A DNA stretch of 64,000 nucleotides from Acidimicrobiia bacterium (GCA_052387955.1 JBQTIQ010000011.1:3602-67601), one strand, 5' to 3'; positions 13,485 through 29,057 are shown, counted from the stretch's first letter. The notes: generated by a model not told the origin, from the sequence alone. Made by a program: numbers and translations.

Positions 13485-13700
13485 ATGAAGAACGGCGCTT
13501 ACCAGGTGATGGGGCTGCCCGCTCCCGCCGGCGCACCGTTCGCCCTCTCGCGTCCGCGTGCCGCCGCCGGTCGCGAGGCGGCCGTGCCCGGCCTCACCGT
13601 GGCCTGGCCCACGCCCATCGACGCCGACAAGCCGGCCACGCCGATGTTCGTCAACGGGCCTGATCACCGCACCCGACGACCTTGGGAGCCCTCGCAGTAG
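13485..13700 (+). CDS. Candidate leader uORF of whiB7 (71 codons)
   Basis: ATG 13485 lies 8 nt after GAGGGAGAGAGG. Its stop TAG (13698-13700) sits in the loop of a 9-bp hairpin, 22 nt before the terminator stem. The peptide has no recognisable domain. Confidence 0.4.
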   Translation: MKNGAYQVMGLPAPAGAPFALSRPRAAAGREAAVPGLTVAWPTPIDADKPATPMFVNGPDHRTRRPWEPSQ

Positions 13701-13722
13701 CGCTGCGAGGGAAGGACTTCCG

Positions 13723-13761
13723 AAAGGCCGTCGGGGCAACCCGACGGCCTTTCTGCTTTCT
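13723..13761 (+). terminator. Intrinsic terminator/attenuator in the whiB7 leader
   Basis: AAAGGCCGTCGGG-GCAA-CCCGACGGCCTTT forms a perfect 13-bp stem with a tetraloop, followed by CTGCTTTCT. It lies 41 nt upstream of the whiB7 ATG. Confidence 0.6.
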
Positions 13762-13801
13762 GAGCCCGAAACCGACCACGATCCAGGGGGAAGGGGACCC
13801 G

Positions 13802-14182
13802 ATGTCTGCCCCGCAGCCAACCGACACCAAGGACTTCGCCACGACCGGCGCGTTCGACCTCGTCCGCACCGATTGGTGGGCGCAGGCCCGCTGCGACGAC
13901 CAGGCCGCCACGCTCTCGGGGCTCTTCTTCAGTGAGGAGCTCCAGGACATCGCCGCCGCCAAGCGCATCTGCGCGTTGTGCCCGGTGATGGCCGACTGCC
14001 TCGAGGGCGCTCTCGAGCGGCGTGAGCCGTGGGGAGTGTGGGGCGGCCAGCTCTTCCTCCACGGCAAGGTCCTCGACGCCAAGCGCCGGCGGGGCCGCCC
14101 GCCCAAGGTGGCCCGTCCCGAGGACGAGTTCCCCGACGTCCCCGTCCCGGCCCACCTCCAGGACCGCCTCCGCACCGCCTGA
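13802..14182 (+). CDS. whiB7: WhiB7-type Fe-S transcription factor with AT-hook
   Basis: ATG 13802 after GGGGAAGGGGA. Cys pattern C...CALCPVMADC, the EPWGVWGG turn, and a C-terminal AT-hook RRRGRPPK. Confidence 0.85.
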   Translation: MSAPQPTDTKDFATTGAFDLVRTDWWAQARCDDQAATLSGLFFSEELQDIAAAKRICALCPVMADCLEGALERREPWGVWGGQLFLHGKVLDAKRRRGRPPKVARPEDEFPDVPVPAHLQDRLRTA

Positions 14183-14253: not shown

Positions 14254-14280
14254 GTCACGGCCAGGAAACTGCCGGGCAAC
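14254..14280 (+). promoter_or_regulatory. GlnR-type box upstream of narK
   Basis: GTCAC-ggccag-GAAAC-tgccgg-GCAAC matches the actinobacterial GlnR consensus GTnAC-n6-GnAAC. It ends 24 nt before the narK ATG. Confidence 0.45.
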
Positions 14281-14303: not shown

Positions 14304-15515
14304 ATGCCAGCACAAGGGTTCCGCCAAGCGGGCCACCCCCCGAGCCTCATTGCCGCCCTCGTCCACTTCGACGTCTCCTTCCTGTGCTGGGTACTGCTCG
14401 GGGCATTGGGCCCCTATGTCGCCTCCGACCTGGGCCTCAACGCCACCCAGAAGGGCCTCATGGTGGCGGTGCCCCCCCTGGGCGGCGCGGCCTTCCGGCT
14501 GCTGCTAGGGCCGCTCGCCGACCGCGTCGGGATCAAGCGGCTCGGCCTGGCGACCCTCTCGCTCACGTTCATCCCCCTCGGCTGGGCCGCCGTCGCCGGA
14601 ACCTCCTACGCCGAGGTGCTTGTCATCGGGCTCCTCCTCGGCGTGGCTGGTGCCAGCTTCGCCGTGGCCCTGCCGTTGGTGAGCCGCTGGTACCCGCCCG
14701 AACACCAGGGCCTCGCCCTCGGCATTGCCGGCGCCGGCAACTCCGGGACCGTGATCGCGGCGCTGGCCGCCCCCCGGTTGGCCGAGCACGTCGGCTGGCA
14801 CGGGACCTTCGCCCTGGCCATGGTCCCGGTGACCCTGGCCTGGGTCACGTTCGCGGCCCTGGCCAAGGAGCCGCCCAAACCGGTCGGTGGCCCGCCCGCC
14901 GGCAGCGTCTTCTCGCTGCTGCGCAGCAACGATCCCCGCTGGCTGTGCTCGTTCTACCTGGTCACCTTCGGCACCTTCGTCGGCCTGTCGGGGTACATGC
15001 CGATCTTCTTCGTCGACCGGTTCGGCCTGGCCAAGGTGACGGCCGGCGCCTTCGCCGCCCTGTGCGCGGTGGCCGGGTCGTTCCTGCGCCCGCTGGGCGG
15101 ATGGCTCTCGGACCGCTTCGGCGGGACGCTGGTCCTGGCCTCGGTGCTGGGCCTGGCCGCGGTGTTGGCCGGCGTGCTCACGACGTTGCCCGGCCTGGGC
15201 CTCACCGTGGCCCTGCTCTTCACCATGCTGGGCCTGCTGGGCATGGGCAACGGCGCCGTGTTCCAGCTCGTGGGCAGCCGGGTGCCCGAACGGGTCGGGG
15301 CCATGACCGGCCTGGTCGGCGCCGCCGGCGGCCTCGGCGGCTTCGCCCTTCCCTTCGCCTTCGGGGCCCTGGCCTCGGCGACGGGCACCTTCGCCACCGG
15401 CTATACGGTCCTGGCCCTCGCCACCACCGCCGCCGCCATCGCCGTCGGCAGCCGTGACCGCCACTGGCGAGTACCGGCCGGTGCCACCTCCAGGACACTC
15501 GAGCCCGCTCGATGA
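14304..15515 (+). CDS. narK: MFS nitrate/nitrite transporter NarK/NasA-type
   Basis: Trimmed to ATG 14304. 12-TM MFS protein with NarK-type Gly-rich motifs (GAGNSG, GAAGGLGGF). Precedes nirBD. Confidence 0.85.
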   Translation: MPAQGFRQAGHPPSLIAALVHFDVSFLCWVLLGALGPYVASDLGLNATQKGLMVAVPPLGGAAFRLLLGPLADRVGIKRLGLATLSLTFIPLGWAAVAGTSYAEVLVIGLLLGVAGASFAVALPLVSRWYPPEHQGLALGIAGAGNSGTVIAALAAPRLAEHVGWHGTFALAMVPVTLAWVTFAALAKEPPKPVGGPPAGSVFSLLRSNDPRWLCSFYLVTFGTFVGLSGYMPIFFVDRFGLAKVTAGAFAALCAVAGSFLRPLGGWLSDRFGGTLVLASVLGLAAVLAGVLTTLPGLGLTVALLFTMLGLLGMGNGAVFQLVGSRVPERVGAMTGLVGAAGGLGGFALPFAFGALASATGTFATGYTVLALATTAAAIAVGSRDRHWRVPAGATSRTLEPAR

Positions 15516-15679: not shown

Positions 15680-18193
15680 ATGGGCACCGACCGCACGATC
15701 CTGGTCGTCGGCCACGGCATGGTCGGCCACCGGTTCCTCGAAGCCGCGGTCGAGGCCGGCCTGCACCTCGCCCATCACATCGTCGTGGTGGGCGAGGAAC
15801 CCCGGCCCGCCTATGACCGCGTCCACCTGTCCTCGTTGTTCGACGGGATGTCCGCCGACGACCTGCGCCTGGGCTCGCCGACCTTCGCCGCAGAGCACGG
15901 CATCGAGGTGCGTTCGAACGAGGTCGTCGTCGCTCTCGACACCGCGGGCCGCCGCGCCACCACCTCCGCCGGTGCCGTGCTCCTTTACCACGAGTGCGTC
16001 CTGGCCACCGGGTCGTACCCGTTCGTTCCCCCCGTCCCCGGTATCGAAGCCGCCGGCAGCTTCGTCTACCGCACCATCGAAGACCTCGACGCCATCCGGG
16101 CCTGGTCCACCGGCTGCCGCACCGGGGTCGTGGTCGGCGGGGGCCTCCTCGGGCTGGAGGCGGCCAACGCGTTGCGGCTGCTCGGCCTCGACACCACCGT
16201 CGTCGAGTTCGCCCCCCGCCTCATGGCGGTCCAGCTCGACGACGGCGGCGGACGGGCCCTACGCCGCCACGTCGAGGCGCTCGGCCTGCACGTCATCACC
16301 TCGGCCGGCGCCAGCGCGGTGCTGACCACCCCCGACGGCCGGGTCGAAGGGCTGCGCTTCGCGGAGACCTGCGACCGGCCCGACCTCGCCGCCGACATCG
16401 TGGTGTTCGCCGCCGGCATCCGCCCTCGCGACGAGCTGGCCCGCCAGGCCGGCCTCGAGGTGGGCGAACGGGGCGGCGTGGTCATCGACGACCGGGGCGC
16501 GACCTCGGCCGCCGGCGTGTGGGCCATCGGCGAGGTCGCGGCCCACGCCGGCCGCTGCTACGGCCTCGTCGCCCCTGGCTACAAGATGGCCGAGGTCGTC
16601 GCCGACCGCCTCGCCGGCGGCACCGCCACCTTCGAGGGCGCCGACACCAGCACCACGCTCAAGCTTCTCGGCGTCGACGTCGCGGTGGCCGGTGACCCTC
16701 ACGGCGCCGGCGACGAGGTGGTCTTCGCCGACCCGGTCGCCGGCGTCTACAAGAAGCTGGTCCTGGGCCCCGACGGCGCCATCACCGGCGCGGTGCTGGT
16801 CGGCGACGTCTCCGCCTACCCCGCCCTGGTGCAGTACTGCCGGGGCACGCTGGCATCCCCGGCCGCCCCCGCCGCCCTGGTCGCACCGGCGGGCTCGGGC
16901 GTGGCGCTGCCCGGGCCGGCCGACCTGCCCGACGAAGCGACGATCTGCTCCTGCCACAACGTGACCTGCGGGGCCATCCGCTCGGCGGTCAGTGCCGGCG
17001 CCGAGACGCCGGTGGCGGTGGGCGCCGCCACCAAGGCGGGCACCGGCTGCGGGAGCTGCGTCCCCCTGGTCTCCGAGATGGTCGACGCCGGCCTCGCCGC
17101 CGCCGGCAGGACCGTGATCGTCCGGTTGTGCGAGCACTTCGCCATGAGCCGCCAGGAGCTCTTCGACGTGGTGCGCGTCACCGGCATCCGCACCTTCGCC
17201 GAACTGGTCGGGCGCCACGGCAATGGGCGGGGCTGCGCCATCTGCAAGCCGGCGGTGGCGTCGATGTTCGCGTCGCTGGCATCGGGCCACGTGCTCGACG
17301 GCGAGCAGGCGTCGCTGCAGGACACCAACGACCACTTCCTGGCCAACCTCCAACGGGACGGCACGTACTCGGTGGTGCCCCGGGTGCCCGCCGGTGAGAT
17401 CACCCCCGACGGCCTCATCGCCATCGGTGAGATCGCCCGTGATTTCGACCTGTACACGAAGATCACCGGCGGCCAGCGCATCGACATGTTCGGTGCCCGC
17501 GTCGAACAGCTGCCCGAGATCTGGCGCCGCCTCATCGGCGCCGGATTCGAGTCGGGCCACGCCTACGGCAAGGCGCTCAGGACGGTCAAGTCATGTGTCG
17601 GCTCCACCTGGTGCCGGTTCGGGGTGCAGGACTCGGTACAGCTGGCGATCGACCTCGAGCTCCGTTACCGGGGCCTACGAGCGCCCCACAAGATCAAGTT
17701 GGCGGCGTCGGGCTGCGCCCGGGAATGTGCCGAAGCGCAGAGCAAGGACGTCGGTGTCATCGCCACCGAGCGGGGCTGGAACCTCTACGTCGGCGGCAAC
17801 GGCGGCATGCGCCCGGTCCACGCCCAGCTCCTCGCCGAGGACCTCGACACCGAGACCCTCTTCCGCTTCGTCGACCGGTTCCTCGCCTACTACATCCGTA
17901 CCGCCGACCGCCTCGAGCGCACCGCCACCTGGCTGCGCAAGCTGCCCGGCGGCGTCGCCCAGGTCAAGCGGGTGGTCGTGGACGATGCCCTCGGGATCGG
18001 GGCCGACCTCGAAGCCGACATCGCCCGCCATGTCGAGAGCTACGAGTGCGAGTGGAAGGCGACCCTCGACGACCCGATGCGCCTCGCCCGTTTCGCCACC
18101 TTCGTCAACAGCGACGAGGGCGACCCCACCCTGGCCTACGTGCGGGTGCGGGGCCAACGCCAGCCCGTGGAGATCGTGGGAGCCCGGCCATGA
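15680..18193 (+). CDS. nirB: NAD(P)H-dependent nitrite reductase large subunit
   Basis: 837 aa. N-terminal FAD/NAD Rossmann folds (VVGHGMVGHRF), BFD-like 2Fe-2S Cys pairs, and a sirohaem/4Fe-4S C-terminal domain (SCVGSTWCRFG, ASGCARECAEA). Confidence 0.95.
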   Translation: MGTDRTILVVGHGMVGHRFLEAAVEAGLHLAHHIVVVGEEPRPAYDRVHLSSLFDGMSADDLRLGSPTFAAEHGIEVRSNEVVVALDTAGRRATTSAGAVLLYHECVLATGSYPFVPPVPGIEAAGSFVYRTIEDLDAIRAWSTGCRTGVVVGGGLLGLEAANALRLLGLDTTVVEFAPRLMAVQLDDGGGRALRRHVEALGLHVITSAGASAVLTTPDGRVEGLRFAETCDRPDLAADIVVFAAGIRPRDELARQAGLEVGERGGVVIDDRGATSAAGVWAIGEVAAHAGRCYGLVAPGYKMAEVVADRLAGGTATFEGADTSTTLKLLGVDVAVAGDPHGAGDEVVFADPVAGVYKKLVLGPDGAITGAVLVGDVSAYPALVQYCRGTLASPAAPAALVAPAGSGVALPGPADLPDEATICSCHNVTCGAIRSAVSAGAETPVAVGAATKAGTGCGSCVPLVSEMVDAGLAAAGRTVIVRLCEHFAMSRQELFDVVRVTGIRTFAELVGRHGNGRGCAICKPAVASMFASLASGHVLDGEQASLQDTNDHFLANLQRDGTYSVVPRVPAGEITPDGLIAIGEIARDFDLYTKITGGQRIDMFGARVEQLPEIWRRLIGAGFESGHAYGKALRTVKSCVGSTWCRFGVQDSVQLAIDLELRYRGLRAPHKIKLAASGCARECAEAQSKDVGVIATERGWNLYVGGNGGMRPVHAQLLAEDLDTETLFRFVDRFLAYYIRTADRLERTATWLRKLPGGVAQVKRVVVDDALGIGADLEADIARHVESYECEWKATLDDPMRLARFATFVNSDEGDPTLAYVRVRGQRQPVEIVGARP

Positions 18194-18224: not shown

Positions 18225-18599
18225 ATGACCCTGATCGAAGCACGCACGGCGTGGGTCGAGGTGTGCAGCCTCGGACAGCTGACCCCGGACCGGGGCGTCG
18301 CTGCCCTCGTCGGAGGCGAGCAAGTGGCGGTGTTCCACCTCTCGACCGGCGAGGTCTTCGCCCTCGGGAACCGCGACCCCTTCTCGGGGGTCAACGCGCT
18401 CAGCCGGGGCATCGTCGGCGACGCCGGCGGCGTGCCGATGGTGGCCTCGCCGGTCTACAAACAGCGCTTCGACCTGCGCACCGGCGTATGCGTCGACGAC
18501 GAGGCGGTAGCCGTACCGGTCTACCCCGTCCGGCTCCGCTCCGAGACTGTCGAGGTCGCGTTGCTGGCTGCGTTCCCCGGCCACGCAGGCCGCTCGTGA
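18225..18599 (+). CDS. nirD: Nitrite reductase small subunit
   Basis: ATG 18225 within track ORF 17223..18599. Rieske-like fold sequence (VAVFHL...ALGNRDPFSGVNALSRGIVGD...VASPVYKQRFDLRTG). Confidence 0.9.
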   Translation: MTLIEARTAWVEVCSLGQLTPDRGVAALVGGEQVAVFHLSTGEVFALGNRDPFSGVNALSRGIVGDAGGVPMVASPVYKQRFDLRTGVCVDDEAVAVPVYPVRLRSETVEVALLAAFPGHAGRS

Positions 18600-18663
18600 C
18601 CGCACCTCCGCTGGCGCTCCGGCGCTCGCACCGGCGCTCGCACCGGCGGGACCAGGGGCGGGC

Positions 18664-20142
18664 ATGACGCTGCTCGAGCCGCTGGCGCTGGAGTCGACAC
18701 CGGTCACGATCGGGCGGGCGCCGACGCCGGCTCTCGGCCGGAACAAGACCGGCATCGGTGAGAACGGCCCGGACCTGCTGCCTCTCGACGCCGGCGAGCA
18801 GTACCGCTTCGGGTTCTCAATGGAGTCCTGCATCGGGTGCCACTCCTGTGAGGTGGCCTGTGCCGAACAGAACGGGCTGCCGGCCGGGACCGCCTGGCGG
18901 CGGGTGGGCGAGATCGAGGGGGGCCAGCATCCCGACACCCGCCGCTGGCACCTGTCGATGTCGTGCAACCACTGTCTCGACCCCGCCTGCCTCGACGGCT
19001 GCCCGACCAAGGCCTACGAGAAGCTGCCCAACGGCATCGTCGAGCATCATGCCGACGACTGCATCGGATGCCAGTACTGCACCTGGAAATGCCCGTACTC
19101 GGTGCCGGTGTTCCAGCCCGACCGGCGCATCGTCACCAAGTGCGACCTGTGCGCTCCCCGCCTGGGCGCCGGGCTCAAGCCGGCCTGTGTGGACGCCTGC
19201 CCGACGCACGCCATCACCGTCGAGAAGGTGAACGTGGCCGAGTGGCGGGCCGATCACCGCGCCGGCGACGCCCCCGAGCTCCCCTCCGCCGACATCACCT
19301 TGTCGACCACCCGGATCGAGCTCCCCCGGGACCTGCCCGCCGACGCTGCCGCCGCCAGCGACTGGGACCTGCGCCCCGAGCACCCGCACTGGCCGCTGGT
19401 GTGGCTCACGCTGCTCACCCAGGCCGCGGTCGGGACCAGCGCCACCGGCCGCTACACCGGCTCGGGCCCGGTGGCCATCGCCGCCGCCCTCCTCGCCGGT
19501 ATCGGCCTGGCCGGTTCGCTGCTGCACCTGGGCCGCCCCGCCCTGGCCTGGAAGGCACTCCGCAACCTGCGCCGCTCGTGGCTGTCACGGGAGGTGGCCC
19601 TGTTCGGCGCCTACGCCGCGGTGGCCGCCCTCAACGGCGCCGTCGTCATCTTCGCCGGCGAGCCTTCGCCCGGTCTGGGGACGGCCGCCACCGCCATTGG
19701 GCTGGCCGGCGTCTACGCCTCCGGCCGGCTCTACGTGGTGCCGGGGCGCCCGGCGTGGGACACGCCCATCACCATCGGCGCCTTCCTCGCCACCGGTGCC
19801 GTCCTCGGCCCGATGATGGCGGGCCAGCCCGCCATCTCGGTCGGCGCGGTCGGGTTCCAGCTCCTTCTCCTGGGCGCCAACCTGGCTCGGTTGAGCCGGC
19901 GCCGGGACCGGGCCTGGCGGGGGACGGTGCACCTCTACCTCCACCGGTTCGGCCGGGCGACATCGATGCGGGTGCTCCTGGCGCTGGGCGGCGCCGCCCT
20001 CGCCCTGGTCGGGAACCCCCTGGCGACCCTCGCCGCGGTGGTGGCGGTGGCCATTGCCGAGCTCCTGGGGCGGTGGCTGTTCTACGTCACGGTGGTGCCG
20101 CTCAACATGCCCGGCAGCTTCTGGCGGCAGGGGGCGCGTTGA
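18664..20142 (+). CDS. Fused 4x[4Fe-4S] ferredoxin (DmsB/NrfC-like) and DmsC-like 8-TM membrane-anchor protein
   Basis: Four cluster motifs: CIGCHSCEVAC, CNHCLDPACLDGCP, CIGCQYCTWKCP, CDLC...CVDACP. These are followed by about 8 TM helices with LHLGRPALAWKALRNLRRSWLSREV, a DmsC/YnfH-like signature. Confidence 0.8.
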   Translation: MTLLEPLALESTPVTIGRAPTPALGRNKTGIGENGPDLLPLDAGEQYRFGFSMESCIGCHSCEVACAEQNGLPAGTAWRRVGEIEGGQHPDTRRWHLSMSCNHCLDPACLDGCPTKAYEKLPNGIVEHHADDCIGCQYCTWKCPYSVPVFQPDRRIVTKCDLCAPRLGAGLKPACVDACPTHAITVEKVNVAEWRADHRAGDAPELPSADITLSTTRIELPRDLPADAAAASDWDLRPEHPHWPLVWLTLLTQAAVGTSATGRYTGSGPVAIAAALLAGIGLAGSLLHLGRPALAWKALRNLRRSWLSREVALFGAYAAVAALNGAVVIFAGEPSPGLGTAATAIGLAGVYASGRLYVVPGRPAWDTPITIGAFLATGAVLGPMMAGQPAISVGAVGFQLLLLGANLARLSRRRDRAWRGTVHLYLHRFGRATSMRVLLALGGAALALVGNPLATLAAVVAVAIAELLGRWLFYVTVVPLNMPGSFWRQGAR

Positions 20143-22460
20143 AGTCGCCGAGGGCCAGGGCGACGGCGCAGGCGGCGGCCCGCAAGCCTGCCCTCAAGCC
20201 GCTGAACGACTTGATGCCCCGGGGCATCCCCCGGCCCAACCAGCGCCAGCGGTTGGCGGCCAAGGTGGCCGAACACGCCGAGCGCTACAAGATCGGCCGC
20301 TTCCTGGGACTCGACCACGGCGAGGAGAGGTACCACTTCGGCCGCGACGACGTCTTCGGCCCCATGCATGCGGCCAAGGTCCCCGACCGGTGGGTCAAGA
20401 CGACCTGCGGCTACTGTTCGGTCGGGTGCGGGATGCTGGTGGGCATCCGCAAGGGCGAGGCAGTGACGGTCCGCGGCGATCCCGACCACCCCGTGAACCG
20501 TGGCCGCCTGTGCCCCAAGGGTTGCTCCGAGCACCTCACGTTGCGCGCCCCGGGGCGGCTGACCGAACCGCTGGTCGACGGCCAGCCGGCGACCTGGGAC
20601 GCCGCCCTCGACCGGATGGTCACCGGGTTCCGAGACCTCGTCGACCGCTACGGGCCCGAGTCGGTGGCGGTCCTGTCGACCGGCCAGCTGGTGACCGAGG
20701 AGTTTTACGCGCTGGGCAAGTTGGTGCGCCTCGGCATGGGCCTGGCCCACTTCGACGGCAACACCACGCTGTGCATGGCCAGCGCGGTGTCGGGCTACAA
20801 GCTCAGCTTCGGCACCGACGGCCCACCCGGCTGCTACGAGGACCTCGACCTGGCCGACGTGGTGGTGCTGTGGGGCGCCAACATCGCCGACAACCATCCG
20901 CTCCTCGCCCCCCGGGTGCTCGACAACCAACGGGAACGGGGTGCGACGGTGATCGTCGTCGACCCCCGGGTGACCAAGACAGCCCAGTTCGCCGACCTGC
21001 ACCTGCCGGTCAAGCCCCGTACCGACGTCATCCTGCTCAACGGGCTCATCAAGCTCCTCGTCGACGAGGGCTACGTCGACCTCGATGCGGCCCGGGCCCA
21101 CGTGGAGGGCCTCGACGCCCTGCTCGAGCACGTCCAGCAGTACCCCCTCGAACGGGTGGCCGAGGAATGCGGCCTGCCGGCCCCCGACGTGATGGCCATG
21201 GCTCGCGCCATCGGGCAGGCCGGGGCGGCCACCGTGGCCTGGACGATGGGCGTCAACCATTCGGTGCAGGGGACCGAGACCGTCACGCTGCTCAACACCC
21301 TGTGCGTACTCACCGGCAACGTCGGCCGTCCCGGGGCGGCACCGTTCTCGATCACCGGCCAGTGCAACGCCATGGGCACCCGGGAGTCGGGCTTCACCGC
21401 CTCGATGCCCGGCTACCGCGCCTTCGACGACCCGGCGCACCGGGCCGAGCTGGCGGCGTTGTGGGGCATCGACGAGTCCCGCCTCCCCACCGAGCGGGGC
21501 CGGGCCTATCCCGACATCGTCAACGCCATCGCCAGTGGCCGCATCAAAGGCCTGTGGGTGATCGGCACCAACCCGGTCGTGTCCTTCCCCAATCGCGAGA
21601 CGCTCGAGTTCGCCCTCGGGCGCCTCGAGCTGCTGGTGGTCCAGGACGGCTTCGAGACGCCCACCACCGAGCGCGCCGACGTGGTGCTGCCCGCGGCGAT
21701 CTGGGGGGAGAAGAGCGGCACCTTCACCAACAGCGAGCGGCGAGCCAGCCCGGTGCGGGCGGCCGTGGGCCCCATCGGCAAGGCCCGCACCGATTTCCGC
21801 ATCTTCCTCGACGTCGCCGAGCGGTGGGGCTGTCGAGACGAGCTGTTCCGGGACTGGACGACGCCGCGGCATGCCTGGGACGAGTGGCGCACGGTCTCCG
21901 CCGGGCGCCCCTGCGACTACAGCGGCGCTTCGTGGGAGCGGATCGAGGCGGCCGGCGGCGTGCAGTGGCCCTGCCCGGCCGACGACGCCGACCTCGCGCT
22001 CGGGGGTACCCCCCGCCTCTACACCGACCTGCGGTTCAACCGCCCCGACGGCCGGGCCGCGCTCCGGGTGGTCGCGCCGGCGCCCTTCACCGACGAGCCC
22101 GGACGCGACTTCCCGTTCGTGCTCAACACCGGCCGCACCGTCGAGCACTGGCACACCCGGACGAAGACCGGGCGCATCCCCATCCTCGAGGCCATGGCTC
22201 CCGAAGCGTGGGTCGAGATCAACCCGGGCGACGCCGCCGCGCTCGGAGTCCGCTCCGGCGACCTGGTCCGCATGGTGTCCGAGCGGGGCGCGGTGGACCG
22301 CATCCGGGCCCGGGTGACGGCCATCGTGCGCCGGGGCGAGGTCTTCGTCCCCTTCCACTGGGACGAACGGTGCGCCAACCGCCTCACCAACGACGAGTTC
22401 GACCCGATCAGCCGCGAACCCAACTACAAGCAGTGCGCCGTACGGGTCGAGAAGGTGTGA
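20139..22460 (+). CDS. Molybdopterin oxidoreductase, assimilatory nitrate reductase (NasA/NarB-like)
   Basis: N-terminal 4Fe-4S CGYCSVGCG...CPKG, MGD-binding blocks, and a C-terminal FVPFHWDE..ANRLTN..DPISREPNYKQCAV. The start is either TTG 20139 (TTGA overlap with the upstream stop) or ATG 20214. No Tat signal. Confidence 0.85.
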   Translation: MKSPRARATAQAAARKPALKPLNDLMPRGIPRPNQRQRLAAKVAEHAERYKIGRFLGLDHGEERYHFGRDDVFGPMHAAKVPDRWVKTTCGYCSVGCGMLVGIRKGEAVTVRGDPDHPVNRGRLCPKGCSEHLTLRAPGRLTEPLVDGQPATWDAALDRMVTGFRDLVDRYGPESVAVLSTGQLVTEEFYALGKLVRLGMGLAHFDGNTTLCMASAVSGYKLSFGTDGPPGCYEDLDLADVVVLWGANIADNHPLLAPRVLDNQRERGATVIVVDPRVTKTAQFADLHLPVKPRTDVILLNGLIKLLVDEGYVDLDAARAHVEGLDALLEHVQQYPLERVAEECGLPAPDVMAMARAIGQAGAATVAWTMGVNHSVQGTETVTLLNTLCVLTGNVGRPGAAPFSITGQCNAMGTRESGFTASMPGYRAFDDPAHRAELAALWGIDESRLPTERGRAYPDIVNAIASGRIKGLWVIGTNPVVSFPNRETLEFALGRLELLVVQDGFETPTTERADVVLPAAIWGEKSGTFTNSERRASPVRAAVGPIGKARTDFRIFLDVAERWGCRDELFRDWTTPRHAWDEWRTVSAGRPCDYSGASWERIEAAGGVQWPCPADDADLALGGTPRLYTDLRFNRPDGRAALRVVAPAPFTDEPGRDFPFVLNTGRTVEHWHTRTKTGRIPILEAMAPEAWVEINPGDAAALGVRSGDLVRMVSERGAVDRIRARVTAIVRRGEVFVPFHWDERCANRLTNDEFDPISREPNYKQCAVRVEKV

Positions 22461-22537: not shown

Positions 22538-23731
22538 GTGCGAACGAAAGGAGCGCTTCAGGGCGACGACGCCAAGCCCAGCGCCCCGGGTGGCGACGGA
22601 GCTCAGCCGCCCAGAGACACGGCGACGGCGTCGCTCGCCGGCTTCACGGTCGGGATCACCGCCGACCGGCGGTGGGACGAACAGGCCGCCCTCTTCGAGC
22701 GTCGGGGGGCGTCGGTCCAGCACGGGCCGACCATCCGGACCGGTCCTCTCCCCGGCGACGGCCAGCTCCGGGACGTCACCGAGTCGATCATCTCCCAGCC
22801 CCCCGACGTGCTGGTGGCCAACACCGGCATCGGGATCCGTTCCTGGTTCTCGGCCGCCGAGAGCTGGGGACTCGACGCCGAGCTGCTCCGGGCGCTGTCG
22901 GCGGCCACCATCCATGCCCGCGGCCCGAAAGCGTCGGCTGCGGTCGTGGCCGTCGGCCTACCGGTCGCCAGCCGGGCCGGTACCGAACGCCTGCGCGAGG
23001 CGATCGACCTCGTCCTCGAGGACGCCCCGGCGCCAGGCACGGTGGTCGCCGTCCAGCTCGACGGCAGCGGCGCCAGCGACGAGGTCGGGCGCCTGCGGGC
23101 GGCCGGGGTCGTCGTGGTCGAGGTGCCGCCCTACGTGTGGACGATGCCGGCCGACCCCAGACCGGCATTGCGCCTGGCCGACGCCGTCATCAGCGGACGC
23201 GTCCACGCGGTGACGTTCACGGCCGGGCCGGCAGCACGCAACTTGCTGGCGCTGGCCGACGAGCACGGCCGTCGCGACGAGTTGGTCGACGCCCTCGCCG
23301 GCATCGTCGTCGGCTGCGTCGGGCCGGTGTGCGCCGAGGCCGCCCGCGACGCCGGCATCTCCCCCGCAGCCGTGGTCGTGCCGGCCCGGGCCCGTCTGGG
23401 GCCCCTGGTACGGGCCGTGGGTGACGCCCTCGAAGCCCGGGAGGTCCACGTGCCCTCCGGGGCCGGCCGCCTCACGCTGCGGGGCACCAGGCTCCAGTCC
23501 GACGACCACGAGGTCGACCTCACCGACGTCGAGGCCCGCCTCTTCGCGGCCCTCGCCCGCCGGCCCGGCGCCGTCCTGTCCAAGCCCGCCCTGTTGCGGG
23601 AAGTGTGGGGCGACGCCGGCGGCGACCCCCATGTCGTCGAGGTCACCGTGTCGCGGCTCCGCCGGCGCCTGGGCCCCCATGGCCGGGTGGTTACCGCGGT
23701 GCCCCGCCGCGGCTACATGCTCCAGACCTGA
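22538..23731 (+). CDS. nnaR: HemD-like domain fused to OmpR-type winged helix (NnaR-type nitrate/nitrite assimilation regulator)
   Basis: Frame of track ORF 20054..23731. Uroporphyrinogen-III-synthase-like body plus a C-terminal trans_reg_C segment (EARLFAALARRPGAVLSKPALLREVWG...VEVTVSRLRRRLG). The start is uncertain; GTG 22538 is the only classical start after the nasA stop. Confidence 0.75.
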   Translation: MRTKGALQGDDAKPSAPGGDGAQPPRDTATASLAGFTVGITADRRWDEQAALFERRGASVQHGPTIRTGPLPGDGQLRDVTESIISQPPDVLVANTGIGIRSWFSAAESWGLDAELLRALSAATIHARGPKASAAVVAVGLPVASRAGTERLREAIDLVLEDAPAPGTVVAVQLDGSGASDEVGRLRAAGVVVVEVPPYVWTMPADPRPALRLADAVISGRVHAVTFTAGPAARNLLALADEHGRRDELVDALAGIVVGCVGPVCAEAARDAGISPAAVVVPARARLGPLVRAVGDALEAREVHVPSGAGRLTLRGTRLQSDDHEVDLTDVEARLFAALARRPGAVLSKPALLREVWGDAGGDPHVVEVTVSRLRRRLGPHGRVVTAVPRRGYMLQT

Positions 23732-23876: not shown

Positions 23877-25697
23877 CTACAGGATCCCACCCAGGCCGAG
23901 CAGGCCACCCCCGTCGTTGTCGTCGTCGGTCAGGCCCAGGGCCTCGAGCAGCCCGTCGATGAGGCCGTCATCGTCATCATCGTCGTCACCGAAGAGGATG
24001 CCATCGAGGAGCCCGTCACCGTCGCCGTCGCCCAGGAGCCCGTCGAGGAGCCCGTCACCGTCGTCGTCGCCCAGGATCACGCCCAGGATCCCGTCGCCCC
24101 CGAGGATGCCGTTGTCCTCGCTGTTGCCGTCGTCCTCGATGAGCCCGGGCTCGCCGAGCACCAGGTCGACCACATCGTCGACCAGGCAGATGACCACGCC
24201 GAGGAGCCCGTCGGGCGGGTTGCACGGGTTGTCGACCGTGGTCTCCTCCCGGCCCGGCCCCGCCGGTGCGCAGTCGGGATCGAACTGGTCGGTGGAGCCG
24301 TCGCCGTCGTTGTCGACACCGTCGAAGCAGGACCGGTTGTCCCGCGATTCCCGTCCGGGACCGGCCGGGTTGCAGTCGGGGTCGTCGAAGTCACGGAGCA
24401 GGTCGCCGTCGTTGTCGACGCCGTCGTAGCAGTTGCTGTTGTCCCGGACTTCGTTGCCCGGCCCGCCCGGCTGGCAGTCGATGTCGGCTGCGTCGGCCCG
24501 GAAGTCGCCGTCGTTGTCGAGCCCGTCGGCGCAAGGCCCAGGCGGGGTCACTTCGGCGCCGGGACCACTCGGCGTGCAATCGGGGTCGGCGTCGTCGAAG
24601 GCGCCGTCACGGTCGTTGTCGATCAGGTCGAAGCAGGTCCGGTTGTCCCGGTTCTCCCGGCCCGGCCCGCCGGGCTGGCAGTCGAGGTCGTCCTGGTCGG
24701 TGCGGTTGTCGCCGTCGTTGTCGATGCCGTCGGCGCACTGGGGGCCCACCTGGGGGGTGGTCTCCTGGCGGCTACCGCCGGGCTGGCAGTCGGGGTCGGC
24801 ACCGTCGAGGAAGCCGTCGTTGTCGTTGTCGAAGCCGTCGAAGCAGGAACGGTTGTTGACCTGCTCGACGCCGGAACCGCCGGGCTGGCAGTCCGGGTCG
24901 GCGGCATCGGTACGACCGTCACCGTCGTTGTCGATCCCATCGGCGCAGGGCCCCGGCGGCGGCGGCGGGGTCGACTCGCGACCAGCGGCGTTGGGCCGGC
25001 AGTCGAGGTCGGCGGCGTCGGTGGTGCCGTCAGCGTCGTTGTCGACACCGTCGAAGCAGTTCCGGTTGTCACGGTTCTCGGTGCCCGGGCCACCGGCCTG
25101 GCAGTCGAGGTCGGCGGCATCGGTACGACCGTCACCGTCGTTGTCGATCCCATCGGCGCACGGCCCCGGCGGCGGCGGCGGCGGGGTGACCTCACGGCCG
25201 GGGCCGCCCGGCAGACAGTCGCCGTCGGCGCCGTCGACCTGGCCGTCACCGTCGTTGTCGAGGCCGTCGAAGCAGGTCCGGTTGTCGGTGTTCTCGACGC
25301 CGGGACCACCCGGCTGACAGTCGAGGTCGGCGGCGTCGACCCGGCCGTCACCGTCGTCGTCGAACCCATTGGTACAGCTCTGCACCGGTGTGGGACTGCC
25401 TTCAGCCCCCATGCCACCGGGGCGGCAGTCGCCGTCACGTTGGTCGCGCAGGTTGTCGCCGTCGTTGTCGAGGCCGTCGAAGCAGGTCGAGTTGTTGTGC
25501 TGCTCGACGCCGCTGAAGCCGGGCTGACAGTCGAGGTCGAACTGGTCCGTCCGGCCGTCGACGTCGTTGTCGATGCCGTCGAAGCACGTCGGGTTGTTCT
25601 GCGGGTCGATGGCGGCGGCGGACCGCAGGCCCGCTCCCAGAGAGCCGATCAAGGTCAGCGATAGGAGTATCGCCATGAGGGAACGGCGTCGACGCAT
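23877..25697 (-). CDS. Secreted hyper-acidic repeat protein (13 Cys-bracketed Asp-rich modules plus a D/G/L-rich tail)
   Basis: 606 aa. Signal peptide MRRRRSLMAILLSLTLIGSLGAGLRSAAA. Thirteen copies of C-x-D-G-x-D-N-D-x-D-G-x2-D-x2-D-x-D-C joined by PGGPG/Pro-rich linkers. The last ~130 aa are almost only D, G and L. Confidence 0.8.
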   Translation of the reverse strand: MRRRRSLMAILLSLTLIGSLGAGLRSAAAIDPQNNPTCFDGIDNDVDGRTDQFDLDCQPGFSGVEQHNNSTCFDGLDNDGDNLRDQRDGDCRPGGMGAEGSPTPVQSCTNGFDDDGDGRVDAADLDCQPGGPGVENTDNRTCFDGLDNDGDGQVDGADGDCLPGGPGREVTPPPPPPGPCADGIDNDGDGRTDAADLDCQAGGPGTENRDNRNCFDGVDNDADGTTDAADLDCRPNAAGRESTPPPPPGPCADGIDNDGDGRTDAADPDCQPGGSGVEQVNNRSCFDGFDNDNDGFLDGADPDCQPGGSRQETTPQVGPQCADGIDNDGDNRTDQDDLDCQPGGPGRENRDNRTCFDLIDNDRDGAFDDADPDCTPSGPGAEVTPPGPCADGLDNDGDFRADAADIDCQPGGPGNEVRDNSNCYDGVDNDGDLLRDFDDPDCNPAGPGRESRDNRSCFDGVDNDGDGSTDQFDPDCAPAGPGREETTVDNPCNPPDGLLGVVICLVDDVVDLVLGEPGLIEDDGNSEDNGILGGDGILGVILGDDDGDGLLDGLLGDGDGDGLLDGILFGDDDDDDDGLIDGLLEALGLTDDDNDGGGLLGLGGIL

Positions 25698-25922: not shown

Positions 25923-26714
25923 TCACGCGGCCGCCATCGCGTCCTCGGTGAGGAGGCGGAGCAGACGGGCCTGGACGTCCTTGAACCCGGGGTGGTCGAC
26001 GATCGAGACCCGGTCCCGGGGGCGGGGGACGTCGACGGTGATCACGTCGCGCACCGACGGGCCCGGCGGGTTGCTCATGACCACGATGCGGTCCGACAGG
26101 AGGATGGCCTCGTCGATGCCGTGGGTCACCATCACCACGATCTCGGTGTCCGACTCGTTCCCCCACAGCGCCACCAGCTGGGACTGCAACCGTGCCCGGG
26201 TCAGCGCGTCGAGGGCACCGAAGGGCTCGTCGAGCAGCAGGGCCCGCGGCTCGACGGCGAAGGCACGGGCCACTGCGGCGCGCTGGAGCATGTCCCCCGA
26301 CACCTGGCCGGGGCGCTTGTCCTTGTGCTCCCACAGGCCGACGGCGCTGAGGTAGCGCTCGGTGGCGGCGTCGGCCTGCTCGGCCGACCGGTCGGGACGG
26401 GCCGAGCGGGCCGCGATGCGGACGTTGTCGAGCAGGCTGAGCCGGGGCAACAGCGAGTAGTGCTGGAACACGACGGCCCGGTCCGGCCCCGGCCCGGTGA
26501 CGGGTTCGCCGTCGAGGGAGACCGTCCCGGAGTCGGCCCGGAGGAGTCCGGCGGCCACGTTGAGCAGCGTCGACTTCCCGCACCCGGAGTGGCCGATGAG
26601 AGAGACGAACTCGCCCGGTTCGACCGTGAGGTCGATACCCCGCAGGACCTGCTGGCGACCCTTGCGGTCACGCTGGGCGAAGGACTTGGTGATGCCCTGC
26701 AGTACCAAGCTCAT
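25923..26714 (-). CDS. Nitrate/sulfonate/bicarbonate-type ABC transporter ATP-binding protein (NrtD/NrtC-like)
   Basis: Walker A GHSGCGKST, Q-loop VFQH, signature VSGDMLQRAAVA, Walker B LLLDEPFGALD. Confidence 0.9.
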   Translation of the reverse strand: MSLVLQGITKSFAQRDRKGRQQVLRGIDLTVEPGEFVSLIGHSGCGKSTLLNVAAGLLRADSGTVSLDGEPVTGPGPDRAVVFQHYSLLPRLSLLDNVRIAARSARPDRSAEQADAATERYLSAVGLWEHKDKRPGQVSGDMLQRAAVARAFAVEPRALLLDEPFGALDALTRARLQSQLVALWGNESDTEIVVMVTHGIDEAILLSDRIVVMSNPPGPSVRDVITVDVPRPRDRVSIVDHPGFKDVQARLLRLLTEDAMAAA

Positions 26715-26829: not shown

Positions 26830-27738
26830 TCACGGTTCGACCTCCTCGATGGCGACGGCCCGGCCGAGCCGGAGGAACAGGAGGTCGAGCACCAGGCCGA
26901 CGGCGCCGACCAGGATGATCCCGGCGGCGACTTTGGGCAGGTCGCCGCCGTTGTACCAGATCCAGATCGAGTTCCCGATGCCGGTGACGGCTGACAGCAT
27001 CTCGACGGCGACGATCACCATCCAGCCGATCCCCATGGACAGGCGCATACCGGTGACGATCGACGGCAGCGTGTGGGGGAACAGGATGTGGCGGATGTAG
27101 TTCCACCGCCCGAACTTGAACACTTTGGCCACCGCCCGTTGGTCCCGGGGGACCGAGGAGGCACCGGCGGCGGTGTTGAGCGTGATCGGCCAGAGGGCGG
27201 TGATGAAGATCACCCACACCGACGCCTTCTCGGCGTCCTTGAGCGCGAACAGCACGATCGGGAACCACGCCAGGGGAGACACCGGCCGCAGGAACTGCAC
27301 GACCGGGTTCGCCGCGTCCCAGGCCCGTCGGGATGCGCCGAGCAGCATGCCCAACGGGACGCCGACGAGCACCGCGAACACGAACCCGGAGACCACCCGC
27401 TTGAGCGACGAGAACACGAGCAGGCCCACGCCCTGGTCGTTCGGGCCGTGGTTGTAGAACGGCGACGAGAGCATCGACACCAGCTCGCCGAACGAGTCAG
27501 CCGGCGACGGCACGTCGGGGGACTGGATGGCCACCAGCTGCCACAGGCCGACGAAGGTGGCCATACCCACGATCGTCCAGCCCAGCGTCGAGGCCGCCGA
27601 GCGGAGCCGGCCGGTACCACGGCGTTCGGGCTCGGGCTCGGGCGCCCCAGCCGGTGGGCCGTGCGTCTCGAGGGCCTCGGTTGCGACCGGCACCGTGAGG
27701 ACTTCGGGAGCCACGGTCACCGATGCGTGAATGGTCAT
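26830..27738 (-). CDS. nrtB: Nitrate ABC transporter permease (NrtB-like)
   Basis: Trimmed to ATG 27738, which overlaps the SBP stop (ATGA). 302 aa, 6 TM, EAA-like loop (ASSVPRDQRAVAKVFKFGRWNYIRHILFP). Confidence 0.85.
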   Translation of the reverse strand: MTIHASVTVAPEVLTVPVATEALETHGPPAGAPEPEPERRGTGRLRSAASTLGWTIVGMATFVGLWQLVAIQSPDVPSPADSFGELVSMLSSPFYNHGPNDQGVGLLVFSSLKRVVSGFVFAVLVGVPLGMLLGASRRAWDAANPVVQFLRPVSPLAWFPIVLFALKDAEKASVWVIFITALWPITLNTAAGASSVPRDQRAVAKVFKFGRWNYIRHILFPHTLPSIVTGMRLSMGIGWMVIVAVEMLSAVTGIGNSIWIWYNGGDLPKVAAGIILVGAVGLVLDLLFLRLGRAVAIEEVEP

Positions 27739-28994
27739 ACCCGTGCCACCTCCTGCTCGGGTTTGCTGGGATCGAACGTCACGTCGTCGAGCTTCACGTC
27801 GAAGGGCGCCATGTCGTCGTCGGGCACGTCGATGCCCTCGGCGGTGGCCACTTCCCGGTAGAGGTCGGTGAGGATCAGCTCGTCGGCCAGGCCCTGGTAG
27901 TCGGGGGCGCCGCTCAGGAGCCCGAGCCGCTGGTACTGCGCCATGAACCAGATGGCGTGGGACCGGCGGGGGAAGCTGACGAGGCCGTCGCGGAAGAACC
28001 GCATCTGATCGCCCTCGAAGGTCTTGGTGCCGAGGCCCGCCCCGAGGTCGTACTCGCCCGTGAGCCGGCCCCGGATGTCGTCCGCCGGAGCGTTGACGTA
28101 CTTCTCGGGGGAGATGATGTCGGCCGCCGCCGACCGGTTGGCGGGGTCGTCGAGCCACTTCCCCGCCTGGAGGACGGCGGCCATGACGTCGCGCAGCATG
28201 TCGGTCTTGTCGGCCGCGAACTTGGCGTTGCACACCAGGGCCTTCTCGGGATGGAAGTCCCAGAGGTCCTGGGTGGCGAGATGGGTGAAGCCGATGTCCT
28301 TCTGGACCGCCACCGCGCCCCACGGCTCTCCGACGCAGTAGCCCTGGATGTTGCCGACCTCCATGTTCTGCACCATCTGGGGTGGCGGGACCGGCTTGAT
28401 GTCGAGCTTGGAGGCGTCGGCGCCGATCGCCTTCAGCCAGTACCGGAGCCAGATGTCGTGGGTGCCGCCCGGGAACGTCATGGCCAGCTTGGGGGCGTCC
28501 CGGCTGTTGAGGAGCTCGCCGGCCGCCTGCAGGTTGGCGTAGCCGACCTCGGCGAAGTCCTTGGCCAACGTGATGGCCTGGCCGTTCTGGTTGAGCATCA
28601 TGGCGACCCGCAGGTCGCGGCTGCCGGCGCCGCCGATGCCGGTGGCCACCGAGAACGGCATGCTGAAGAGCACGTGCCCGAAGTCGATCTGCCCGTTCAG
28701 CAGGTTGTCACGGGTCGCCGGCCAGGACGCCTGCTTCTCTATGGTGACGTCGAGGCCTCGCTCGGCGAAGTACCCGTTCTCCTTCGCGATGATGAGCGGA
28801 GCGCAGTCGGTGAGGGCGATGAACCCGGCCTTGGCCTTGCGCAGGCCGCCGCCTGACGCGCCGGTCGAAGCGGTCGACTGGCCGCTCGACGTCGTCGCCG
28901 TCTCCGGATCGTCGCCGCAGGCACCGAGCAGCGACCCGGCTGCGGGTACGGCAACGGCCGCGCCTGCCAGCCGGAGGAATCCTCGTCTGTCCAT
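27735..28994 (-). CDS. nrtA: Nitrate ABC transporter substrate-binding protein (NrtA/CmpA family), Tat signal
   Basis: Trimmed to ATG 28994. Tat motif MDRRGFLRLAGAA plus GAC lipobox. AGFIALTDCAPLIIAKENGYFAERGL is the NrtA hallmark block. Confidence 0.85.
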   Translation of the reverse strand: MDRRGFLRLAGAAVAVPAAGSLLGACGDDPETATTSSGQSTASTGASGGGLRKAKAGFIALTDCAPLIIAKENGYFAERGLDVTIEKQASWPATRDNLLNGQIDFGHVLFSMPFSVATGIGGAGSRDLRVAMMLNQNGQAITLAKDFAEVGYANLQAAGELLNSRDAPKLAMTFPGGTHDIWLRYWLKAIGADASKLDIKPVPPPQMVQNMEVGNIQGYCVGEPWGAVAVQKDIGFTHLATQDLWDFHPEKALVCNAKFAADKTDMLRDVMAAVLQAGKWLDDPANRSAAADIISPEKYVNAPADDIRGRLTGEYDLGAGLGTKTFEGDQMRFFRDGLVSFPRRSHAIWFMAQYQRLGLLSGAPDYQGLADELILTDLYREVATAEGIDVPDDDMAPFDVKLDDVTFDPSKPEQEVARV

Positions 28995-29029: not shown

Positions 29030-29057
29030 GTTTCCGCGCCGTGACGCGACCGTGAAC
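29030..29057 (-). promoter_or_regulatory. GlnR-type box upstream of nrtA
   Basis: The minus strand reads GTTCAC-ggtcgc-GTCAC-ggcgcg-GAAAC. The last two elements fit GTnAC-n6-GnAAC exactly. The box ends 35 nt before ATG 28994. Confidence 0.45.

Follow-up and report, generated by a model that had tools for sequence, protein, structure and literature searches.

The window analysed here is a stretch of 64,000 nucleotides from an Acidimicrobiia bacterium (GCA_052387955.1, JBQTIQ010000011.1:3602-67601; positions are counted from the start of the stretch). Two adjacent genes in it encode a fusion of a ferredoxin with a membrane anchor and a molybdoenzyme related to the Nas and Nap nitrate reductases. 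Together they probably constitute a cytoplasm-facing, membrane-bound quinol:nitrate oxidoreductase that feeds the nitrite reductase NirBD for assimilation. The pair is part of a row of genes on the plus strand in the order WhiB-like gene, narK, nirB, nirD, fusion, molybdoenzyme and nnaR, called from codon-position G+C content, Pfam and NCBIfam. The features of the two genes are:

18664-20142, plus strand: fusion protein of 492 residues, with an N-terminal four-cluster ferredoxin and a C-terminal DmsC/NrfD-type anchor of eight transmembrane helices
18796-19233, plus strand: ferredoxin domain with four [4Fe-4S] clusters, residues ~45-190, 16 invariant cysteines
19390-20088, plus strand: eight transmembrane helices, residues 243-475, from AlphaFold2 helices and end-to-end homology to Escherichia coli DmsC
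19516-19593, plus strand: putative quinol site S285-H288...S305-S308-E310 (HLGRP...SWLSRE), counterpart of DmsC Ser62/His65/Ser82/Glu87
20139-20142, plus strand: TTGA overlap of the reductase TTG start (20139) with the TGA stop of the fusion (20140-20142)
20139-22460, plus strand: predicted catalytic subunit of a Nas/Nap-type nitrate reductase with molybdenum-bis(pyranopterin guanine dinucleotide) (Mo-bisPGD), 773 residues, without export signal
20139-20393, plus strand: N-terminal extension of the reductase, residues 1-85, with a basic low-complexity start and a family-conserved later part
20406-20513, plus strand: FS0 [4Fe-4S] motif C90-x2-C93-x3-C97...C125 in the Molybdop_Fe4S4 domain, all four cysteines invariant
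20757-20789, plus strand: GNTTLCMASAV with molybdenum-ligand Cys212, a NapA/Nas-type motif aligned to GNPRLCMASAV of Desulfovibrio desulfuricans NapA

The fusion protein

Pfam detects Fer4_11 (residues 97-186) and DmsC (PF04976, residues 271-387) in the fusion protein. The ferredoxin domain scores 151 bits with the DmsB model TIGR02951, and all its 16 cysteines are kept in 45/45 aligned fusion homologues. A profile built from the 45 homologues matches PDB entries of four-cluster subunits, namely FdnH, PcrB, ArrB and PsrB. Ferredoxin and anchor form a single open reading frame in the window and in all 45 aligned homologues. An AlphaFold2 model based on the alignment of the 45 homologues (predicted local distance difference test, pLDDT, 87.7; predicted template modelling score, pTM, 0.86) has exactly eight transmembrane helices. 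The predicted order is ferredoxin domain, a linker of ~50 residues and the eight helices. Foldseek relates the first half of the model to ArrB, FdnH and PsrB, and the second half to ActC and PsrC of the NrfD fold. The membrane half aligns with E. coli DmsC by hhalign over 267 columns (98.3%) and all eight helices. Pfam, AlphaFold2 and the coordinates thus bear out the 492-residue fusion of a four-cluster ferredoxin and a DmsC-like anchor described in the initial annotation, and the four cysteine motifs and the HLGRP...SWLSRE stretch quoted there are all present.

The anchor is of the NrfD/DmsC type without haem and keeps the histidine, serine and glutamate of the quinol site. These residues lie in LHLGRPALAWKALRNLRRSWLSRE, residues 287-310 of the fusion protein. 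H288, S305 and E310 align with DmsC His65, Ser82 and Glu87, and H288, S305, S308 and E310 are present in 45/45 fusion sequences. The quinone site of DmsC includes His65, Ser82 and Glu87 (PMC8076601). Replacement of His65 blocked quinol oxidation, and mutants show that Glu87 matters in quinol coordination (PMC8076601). E466 and R470 of the fusion are likewise conserved. They correspond to DmsC Glu267 and Arg271, which are putative ion-channel residues (PMC8076601).

Orientation in the membrane

Neither a twin-arginine motif nor a hydrophobic N-region was found in the 45 fusion sequences tested. Among the 23 reductases tested, 22 lack a twin-arginine motif and none has a hydrophobic N-region; the single twin-arginine dipeptide is not followed by a hydrophobic stretch. 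The three controls, E. coli NapA, E. coli DmsA and a relative with a signal for twin-arginine translocation (Tat; L042), were all detected by the same test. Arginine and lysine were counted in the loops with the helix boundaries of the AlphaFold2 model. The ferredoxin-side loops hold a mean of 10.8 of these residues versus 0.7 on the opposite side, and the bias is seen in 45/45 sequences (14 versus 0 in the fusion protein of the window). Only 1-3 of them are found on the ferredoxin side of E. coli DmsC and of two actinobacterial DmsC proteins whose genes neighbour those of Tat-signal enzymes. E. coli DmsC is oriented towards the periplasm (Weiner et al. 1993, cited in PMC8076601). Since the charge bias is reversed and export signals are absent, the anchor is likely turned over relative to DmsC. 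The iron-sulfur domain lies on the same side as the Arg/Lys-rich loops, and ferredoxin domain, quinol site and reductase are all predicted to be on the cytoplasmic side.

The catalytic subunit

The overlap of the fusion stop with a reductase TTG at 20139-20142, pointed out in the initial annotation, is confirmed in the sequence. The frame of the reductase is open from before 20139. Third-position G+C content is 0.98 over 20139-20264, and the intergenic stretch 18600-18663 has no periodicity. TTG 20139 is the only start that takes in all of this high-G+C stretch, which makes it the likely start of translation. Close relatives have shorter N-termini, and the later starts ATG 20214 and GTG 20265 were considered; they are less likely, given the third-position value of 0.98 from 20139 on.

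Pfam assigns Molybdop_Fe4S4, Molybdopterin and Molydop_binding to the reductase. It had been described as a signal-less enzyme with an N-terminal cluster, and this holds: a twin-arginine motif and a hydrophobic region are missing and C90, C93, C97 and C125 are present. An N-terminal extension of ~85-110 residues had also been described. Its length stands, with 89 residues before the first CxxC. Its conservation is limited to the last ~30-35 residues (G57-P82) and is found only among fusion-partnered reductases. Residues 1-45 are basic, of low complexity and predicted to be disordered, and reductase relatives without a fusion align only from residue 74-88 on. The conserved part of the extension may dock the reductase onto the fusion protein. 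The GRFLGLD sequence in the extension was considered as a possible vestigial Tat or chaperone-binding peptide like that of NarG.

The molybdenum-ligand motif GNTTLCMASAV corresponds to the Cys140 motif of NapA. It is a Cys-Met motif; FdhF of the hydrogen-dependent carbon dioxide reductase (HDCR) complex has LCHAPTV there, and formate dehydrogenases have Cys/Sec-His. C212, M213, M370 and R415 are invariant among 23 partnered reductases. Among solved structures, the closest match is D. desulfuricans NapA, a monomeric enzyme (494 bits). NCBIfam scores are all below the cut-off, with 540 for Fdh-alpha, 517 for NasC (cut-off 1100), 512 for the haloarchaeal NasA (cut-off 1000) and 400 for NapA, and they do not discriminate here, the NasC and haloarchaeal NasA models being narrow equivalog models. 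The NarG model TIGR01580 gives 17 bits only.

Phylogeny and gene pairing

A maximum-likelihood tree was calculated for 58 sequences, with E. coli NapA and FdhF and actinobacterial enzymes as the only references. All 35 fusion-partnered reductases fall into one group (support 98/87), apart from the actinobacterial NasN-type and NasA-NasB-type enzymes, the formate dehydrogenase clade and E. coli NapA. The formate dehydrogenase clade is a weakly supported neighbour (91/77). The phylogenetic check suggested in the initial annotation thus led to a clade of fusion-partnered enzymes only, with a NapA-type motif and D. desulfuricans NapA as best solved relative.

The nearest outsiders are a NapA-like enzyme with a Tat signal (L042) and an odd sequence (L139). 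The former (L042:7075-10965, in G052, a complete actinobacterial genome of 4.0 Mb) starts with MDRRRFLQV... and is 47-48% identical to the reductase of the window. Its gene is followed by separate DmsB-like and DmsC-like genes, in the manner of an outward-facing, unfused counterpart and nearest outgroup. The same genome also encodes a fused, inward-facing pair (L038). L139 (in G029) branches near the base of the partnered clade and has GNTRLCTATAG, with a threonine in place of the methionine after the molybdenum-ligand cysteine. Its neighbourhood has no fusion and no nir genes.

The fusion gene and this reductase clade occur side by side. Among 400 sampled genomes of Actinomycetota and the source genome, seven carry a full-length fusion, and a partnered-clade reductase abuts it in 7/7; nir, nnaR or narK genes are close by in 6/7. 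The fusion is present in 14 of 201 sampled genomes of Planctomycetota. A reductase adjoins it in 14/14; conversely, the 14 reductases with at least 42% identity all have a fusion beside them, and in the pair-carrying genomes of this sample no other close NasA homologue (>39% identity) was found. The co-occurrence check proposed in the initial annotation thus comes out in favour: in the genomes sampled from these two phyla, fusion and reductase clade were found only next to each other. In a named genome collection, the pair is present in ~29/31 loci with a full-length close fusion homologue. These loci span seven phyla, that is, Actinomycetota, Planctomycetota, Verrucomicrobiota, Kiritimatiellota, Myxococcota, Acidobacteriota and Pseudomonadota, and the carriers include Acidimicrobiia, the isolate Rubritalea profundi SAORIC-165 (Verrucomicrobiota), a Pontiella metagenome-assembled genome (MAG; Kiritimatiellota), Vicinamibacterales, and Alpha- and Gammaproteobacteria.

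The stop and start codons overlap by 4 nt or 1 nt in ~13/26 related loci. Pairwise identities of fusion and reductase correlate (r = 0.94; Mantel test 0 of 2000). Several actinobacterial genomes have both genes in the planctomycete/verrucomicrobial type, which suggests that the pair moved between lineages as a unit. nirB/nirD are adjacent in 14 loci of the named collection, and the pair has no nirBD within 8 kb in about half of the related loci. The pairing of the fusion with the reductase is obligate; that with nirBD is not.

Proposed electron transfer

The two genes would give rise to a two-polypeptide, three-module enzyme bound to the cytoplasmic membrane from the inside. In the fusion, the DmsC/NrfD-type domain would oxidise (mena)quinol at a cytoplasmic-side site beside the ferredoxin domain. 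The four [4Fe-4S] clusters may hand the electrons to FS0 and the Mo-bisPGD of the Nas/Nap-type subunit, which would transform nitrate to nitrite in the cytoplasm. NirBD, encoded in the same operon, could then produce ammonium for assimilation. As electron donor, the membrane quinol pool would take the place of the NAD(P)H, ferredoxin and flavodoxin modules of known Nas enzymes. Established redox potentials set the direction in which the electrons would flow: menaquinol lies at about -74 mV, nitrate/nitrite at about +420 mV, and the reaction is strongly downhill. A quinol site on the cytoplasmic side provides no redox loop, so the enzyme would be non-electrogenic unless the NrfD-type domain moves protons. 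The inverted domain may couple electron transfer to proton movement via E466/R470, which would make assimilation energy-conserving or gated by the proton-motive force; this variant is distinctly doubtful.

The computed basis of the proposal comprises the domain make-up, the lack of export signals, the inverted charge bias, the conserved quinol-site and cluster ligands, the active-site motif and the pairing. From this we infer that the two proteins form a complex, that quinol is the donor and nitrate the substrate, and that the enzyme serves assimilation. The assimilatory role is suggested by the operon context, nnaR and a GlnR-box-like site upstream of narK. The initial annotation had read the pair as a cytoplasm-facing, membrane-tethered, quinol-fed reductase; the computations support this reading, with quinol as the presumed donor.

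A second nitrate reductase in the genome

The source genome (3.1 Mb, 104 contigs, 92% complete) also encodes a NasN-type nitrate reductase of 1441 residues on contig C62 (L140:4007-8332, minus strand). It contains Molybdop_Fe4S4, Molybdopterin, Molydop_binding, Flavodoxin_1, FAD_binding_1 and NAD_binding_1 domains and a CMASA motif, and groups with long enzymes encoded by actinobacteria with large genomes (7.5-9.9 Mb). The organism thus has two cytoplasmic nitrate reductases with different electron sources. The absence of flavodoxin, ferredoxin and NAD(P)H modules stated in the initial annotation holds for the operon and fails for the genome. In Mycolicibacterium smegmatis, NasN is the sole assimilatory nitrate reductase (PMC7816997). 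NarG was not found in the 92%-complete genome.

Other actinobacterial loci (L132, L134, L135, L136 and L138) have conventional NasA-like genes that run in frame into a FAD/NAD domain similar to the N-terminal half of NirB. They appear to encode NasA-NasB fusions of ~1150-1200 residues, a third wiring of nitrate reductase in the phylum.

Alternative explanations

Several observations weigh against a quinol-fed assimilatory nitrate reductase. The proposal is computational. The reductase misses the cut-offs of the NasC and haloarchaeal NasA models and scores slightly higher with Fdh-alpha. The tree contained no characterised NasA, NasC or NarB, and the separate clade is defined relative to the enzymes included. 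An AlphaFold model of the reductase has residues 1-80 at low confidence (pLDDT 34-55) and offers no confident fold for the extension; such values would also fit a segment that takes up its fold only upon contact with a partner. In an uncultured Verrucomicrobiales MAG (L052:6103-9368), the fusion follows a 572-residue sirohaem reductase of the NirA/Sir type (NIR_SIR and NIR_SIR_ferr domains), and no NasA-like gene is present within 7 kb downstream. Rearrangement of the locus may account for this, or the fusion may have partners of another kind. In the Bacillota, apparently fused relatives (30-41% identity; L069, L080 from Cytobacillus gottheilii and L083) are encoded immediately 3' of another type of molybdoenzyme gene, the product of which shares only 20-26% identity with the reductase of the window. 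The fused design of B and C subunits is therefore not restricted to Nas-type partners. The NasN-type enzyme on C62 may make the pair redundant for growth on nitrate and may mask phenotypes.

The complex could be mainly dissimilatory, redox-balancing or energy-conserving and resemble NarGHI in its role, with NirBD detoxifying nitrite and assimilation being secondary. A catalytic subunit with a four-cluster protein and a quinol anchor has the architecture of a respiratory enzyme, the respiratory niche is vacant in a genome in which NarG was not found, and the NasN-type enzyme could handle assimilation. E466 and R470 match the putative ion-channel residues of DmsC. We consider this role unlikely: the pair has nirBD on one side and nnaR, a regulator of assimilation, on the other, a GlnR-box-like site precedes narK, and the pairing with nirBD recurs in many mostly aerobic lineages. 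The sampled pair-carrying planctomycetes, in which no other close NasA homologue was found, and a cytoplasmic-side quinol site that yields no redox loop also speak against it.

The fusion may be a tether and electron wire only. Electrons would come from NADH via NirB/NirD or from ferredoxin, and the quinol site would be vestigial. A Paracoccus NasB-NasG-NasC system, attributed to Gates et al. 2011, reportedly delivers NADH-derived electrons to its nitrate reductase in this manner. nirB, which codes for an NADH/FAD module, and nirD are directly upstream of the pair here and in 14 related loci. However, H288, S305, E310 and the eight-helix domain are invariant or strongly conserved over seven phyla, which is unexpected for a passive tether. 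Of the related loci, about half lack nirBD within 8 kb, and the fusion is the obligate partner of the reductase while nirBD is not. A mere wire is thus improbable.

A different substrate, such as formate, chlorate or another oxyanion, would mean that the operon context is misleading. The Fdh-alpha model has the top NCBIfam score, the nitrate reductase models are all under the cut-off, and in the tree a formate dehydrogenase clade stands next to the partnered group with weak support. This alternative is nevertheless very improbable, as the Cys-Met motif CMASA is identical to that of NapA and differs from the Cys/Sec-His found in formate dehydrogenases, both M370 and R415 are invariant, and narK, nirBD and nnaR are conserved neighbours.

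An outward-facing complex like DmsABC, with signal-less subunits exported by an unrecognised route, is barely credible despite the outside location of the peripheral subunits in all characterised NrfD-type complexes but SoeABC (PMC8076601) and the existence of the Tat-dependent unfused relative L042, since an export signal is seen in neither subunit among the family members tested, the strong positive-inside bias is opposite to that of outward-facing relatives, and the nitrite has to reach the cytoplasmic NirBD.

Relation to known enzymes

By published description, the closest analogue of the pair is the putatively inverted SoeABC of Allochromatium vinosum and Aquifex aeolicus, a sulfite:quinone oxidoreductase. 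Both systems have a signal-less Mo-bisPGD subunit, a four-cluster protein and a DmsC/NrfD-type anchor with eight transmembrane helices. SoeABC is the only NrfD-type complex proposed to be inverted and cytoplasm-facing, an orientation that is itself a hypothesis, and it has the same quinone-site residues (His65, Ser82, Ser85, Glu87; PMC8076601). Unlike the pair, SoeABC consists of three polypeptides, has a catalytic subunit of another clade, oxidises sulfite with electrons passing into the quinone pool and has no link to nitrogen assimilation.

The respiratory complexes DmsABC of E. coli, PsrABC and ArrABC share the building blocks: the ferredoxin domain matches DmsB, FdnH, ArrB and PsrB, and the anchor aligns with DmsC. 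In contrast to the pair, DmsAB of E. coli is exported to the periplasm by the Tat system, DmsB and DmsC are two polypeptides, the anchor has the reverse charge bias and DmsA belongs to a different catalytic clade.

NasA, NasC and NarB resemble the reductase in being cytoplasmic and in having Mo-bisPGD, a [4Fe-4S] cluster near the N-terminus and a cysteine as molybdenum ligand, and their genes are likewise found with nirBD and a nitrate transporter. They differ in their known donors, which are NAD(P)H flavoproteins, ferredoxin or flavodoxin; in the tree of 58 sequences, the reductase of the window belongs to the clade of fusion-partnered enzymes, which have a conserved N-terminal extension. The operon has no gene for an NAD(P)H-flavoprotein, ferredoxin or flavodoxin partner; the obligate neighbour is the ferredoxin-DmsC fusion. 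NasN, the mycobacterial diflavin monomeric NADPH enzyme, is also an actinobacterial assimilatory enzyme with a CMASA-type active site. Unlike the window reductase, it is a soluble, self-sufficient enzyme that carries flavodoxin, FAD and NAD domains in the same chain, and it branches in a different clade with good support.

Of the periplasmic enzymes, D. desulfuricans NapA, a monomer, gives the best match among solved structures and has an identical molybdenum-ligand motif, and Nap of E. coli also draws on quinol through a ferredoxin and a membrane protein, the pair NapG/NapH. Nap differs by its Tat-dependent export to the periplasm and by a NapGH fold unrelated to DmsC. NarGHI is set apart by its catalytic subunit, since that of the window is not of the NarG type (17 bits with TIGR01580).

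The Nas/Nap/Fdh clade was stated not to be associated with canonical four-cluster or anchor subunits (PMC7331816), and Nas enzymes are described as cytoplasmic (PMC10100899). A review of NrfD-like subunits lists 14 complex types, none of which is a nitrate reductase (PMC8076601). A full-text literature search, in which subscription journals were mostly outside the coverage, brought up no account of a DmsB/DmsC or NrfD partner for a Nas enzyme. NasC of the nasACKBDEF operon of Amycolatopsis mediterranei might be a fusion of this type; the papers that cite the work on that operon give no description of NasC. Within this literature, the arrangement is uncharacterised, as had been supposed. The pair would follow the known modular plan of molybdoenzymes, inverted as in SoeABC; new are the fusion of the B and C subunits and the Nas-type catalytic partner.

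Gene neighbourhood

The window has a G+C content of 70-74%, and the nearest relatives of its proteins are encoded by MAGs of Acidimicrobiia, Microthrixaceae and Ilumatobacteraceae. The other members of the gene row and the site before narK are:

13682-14182, plus strand: WhiB-like open reading frame directly upstream of narK (Pfam WhiB)
14254-14269, plus strand: GlnR-box-like GTCAC-n6-GAAAC, GTCACGGCCAGGAAAC, ~36 nt 5' of the probable narK ATG 14305
14305-15515, plus strand: narK-type nitrate/nitrite transporter of the major facilitator superfamily (TIGR00886 253 bits, below cut-off; MFS_1)
15680-18193, plus strand: nirB, large subunit of NAD(P)H nitrite reductase (NF011565 1047 bits, cut-off 883; TIGR02374 992 bits)
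18225-18599, plus strand: nirD, Rieske-like small subunit (Rieske_2, 8e-40)
22538-23731, plus strand: nnaR-type regulator with a HemD domain and a winged-helix domain (HEM4 and Trans_reg_C)

The narK frame is open from 14022, with ATG 14305 as probable start. The start of nnaR is uncertain; GTG 22538 is the sole candidate 5' of the conserved part. A scan for promoters and terminators gave nothing within the operon and no terminator-like site inside the gene row. The GlnR-box pattern has two matches in the window, at the site before narK and at 29030-29045 (minus strand), versus 0.92 expected. This count is not significant alone, and the site predicted from the pattern upstream of narK is suggestive only.

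The 5' part of the WhiB open reading frame as annotated holds a strong 14-bp hairpin with a T-rich run (13722-13753), and the true start is probably downstream of the hairpin. An open reading frame for 606 residues (23877-25697, minus strand) has a strong coding periodicity and no Pfam match. It is located between nnaR and a pair of genes for an ABC transporter ATPase and permease (25923-26714 and 26830-28323, minus strand).

Implications

According to textbooks and recent surveys of the DMSO reductase superfamily, assimilatory nitrate reductases are soluble and fed by NAD(P)H, ferredoxin or flavodoxin. If the proposed electron transfer is correct, quinol would be a fourth electron source for nitrate assimilation, and the family would provide the second and much more widespread case of an inverted NrfD-type subunit. 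If the proton-coupled variant were true, it would add a third class, in bioenergetic terms, to the nitrate reductases Nar and Nap, one in which the drop of ~0.5 V from menaquinol to nitrate would not be wasted. Databases name the fusion gene product 'DMSO reductase iron-sulfur subunit' (DMSO, dimethyl sulfoxide), 'formate dehydrogenase iron-sulfur subunit' or 'DmsC/YnfH family anchor'. With such annotations, metagenomic inventories of the nitrogen cycle that are based on nasA and nasB-type genes misread these operons. In Planctomycetota, Verrucomicrobiota, Myxococcota, Acidimicrobiia and some Proteobacteria, a quinol-fed enzyme would tie nitrogen assimilation directly to the redox state of the respiratory chain.

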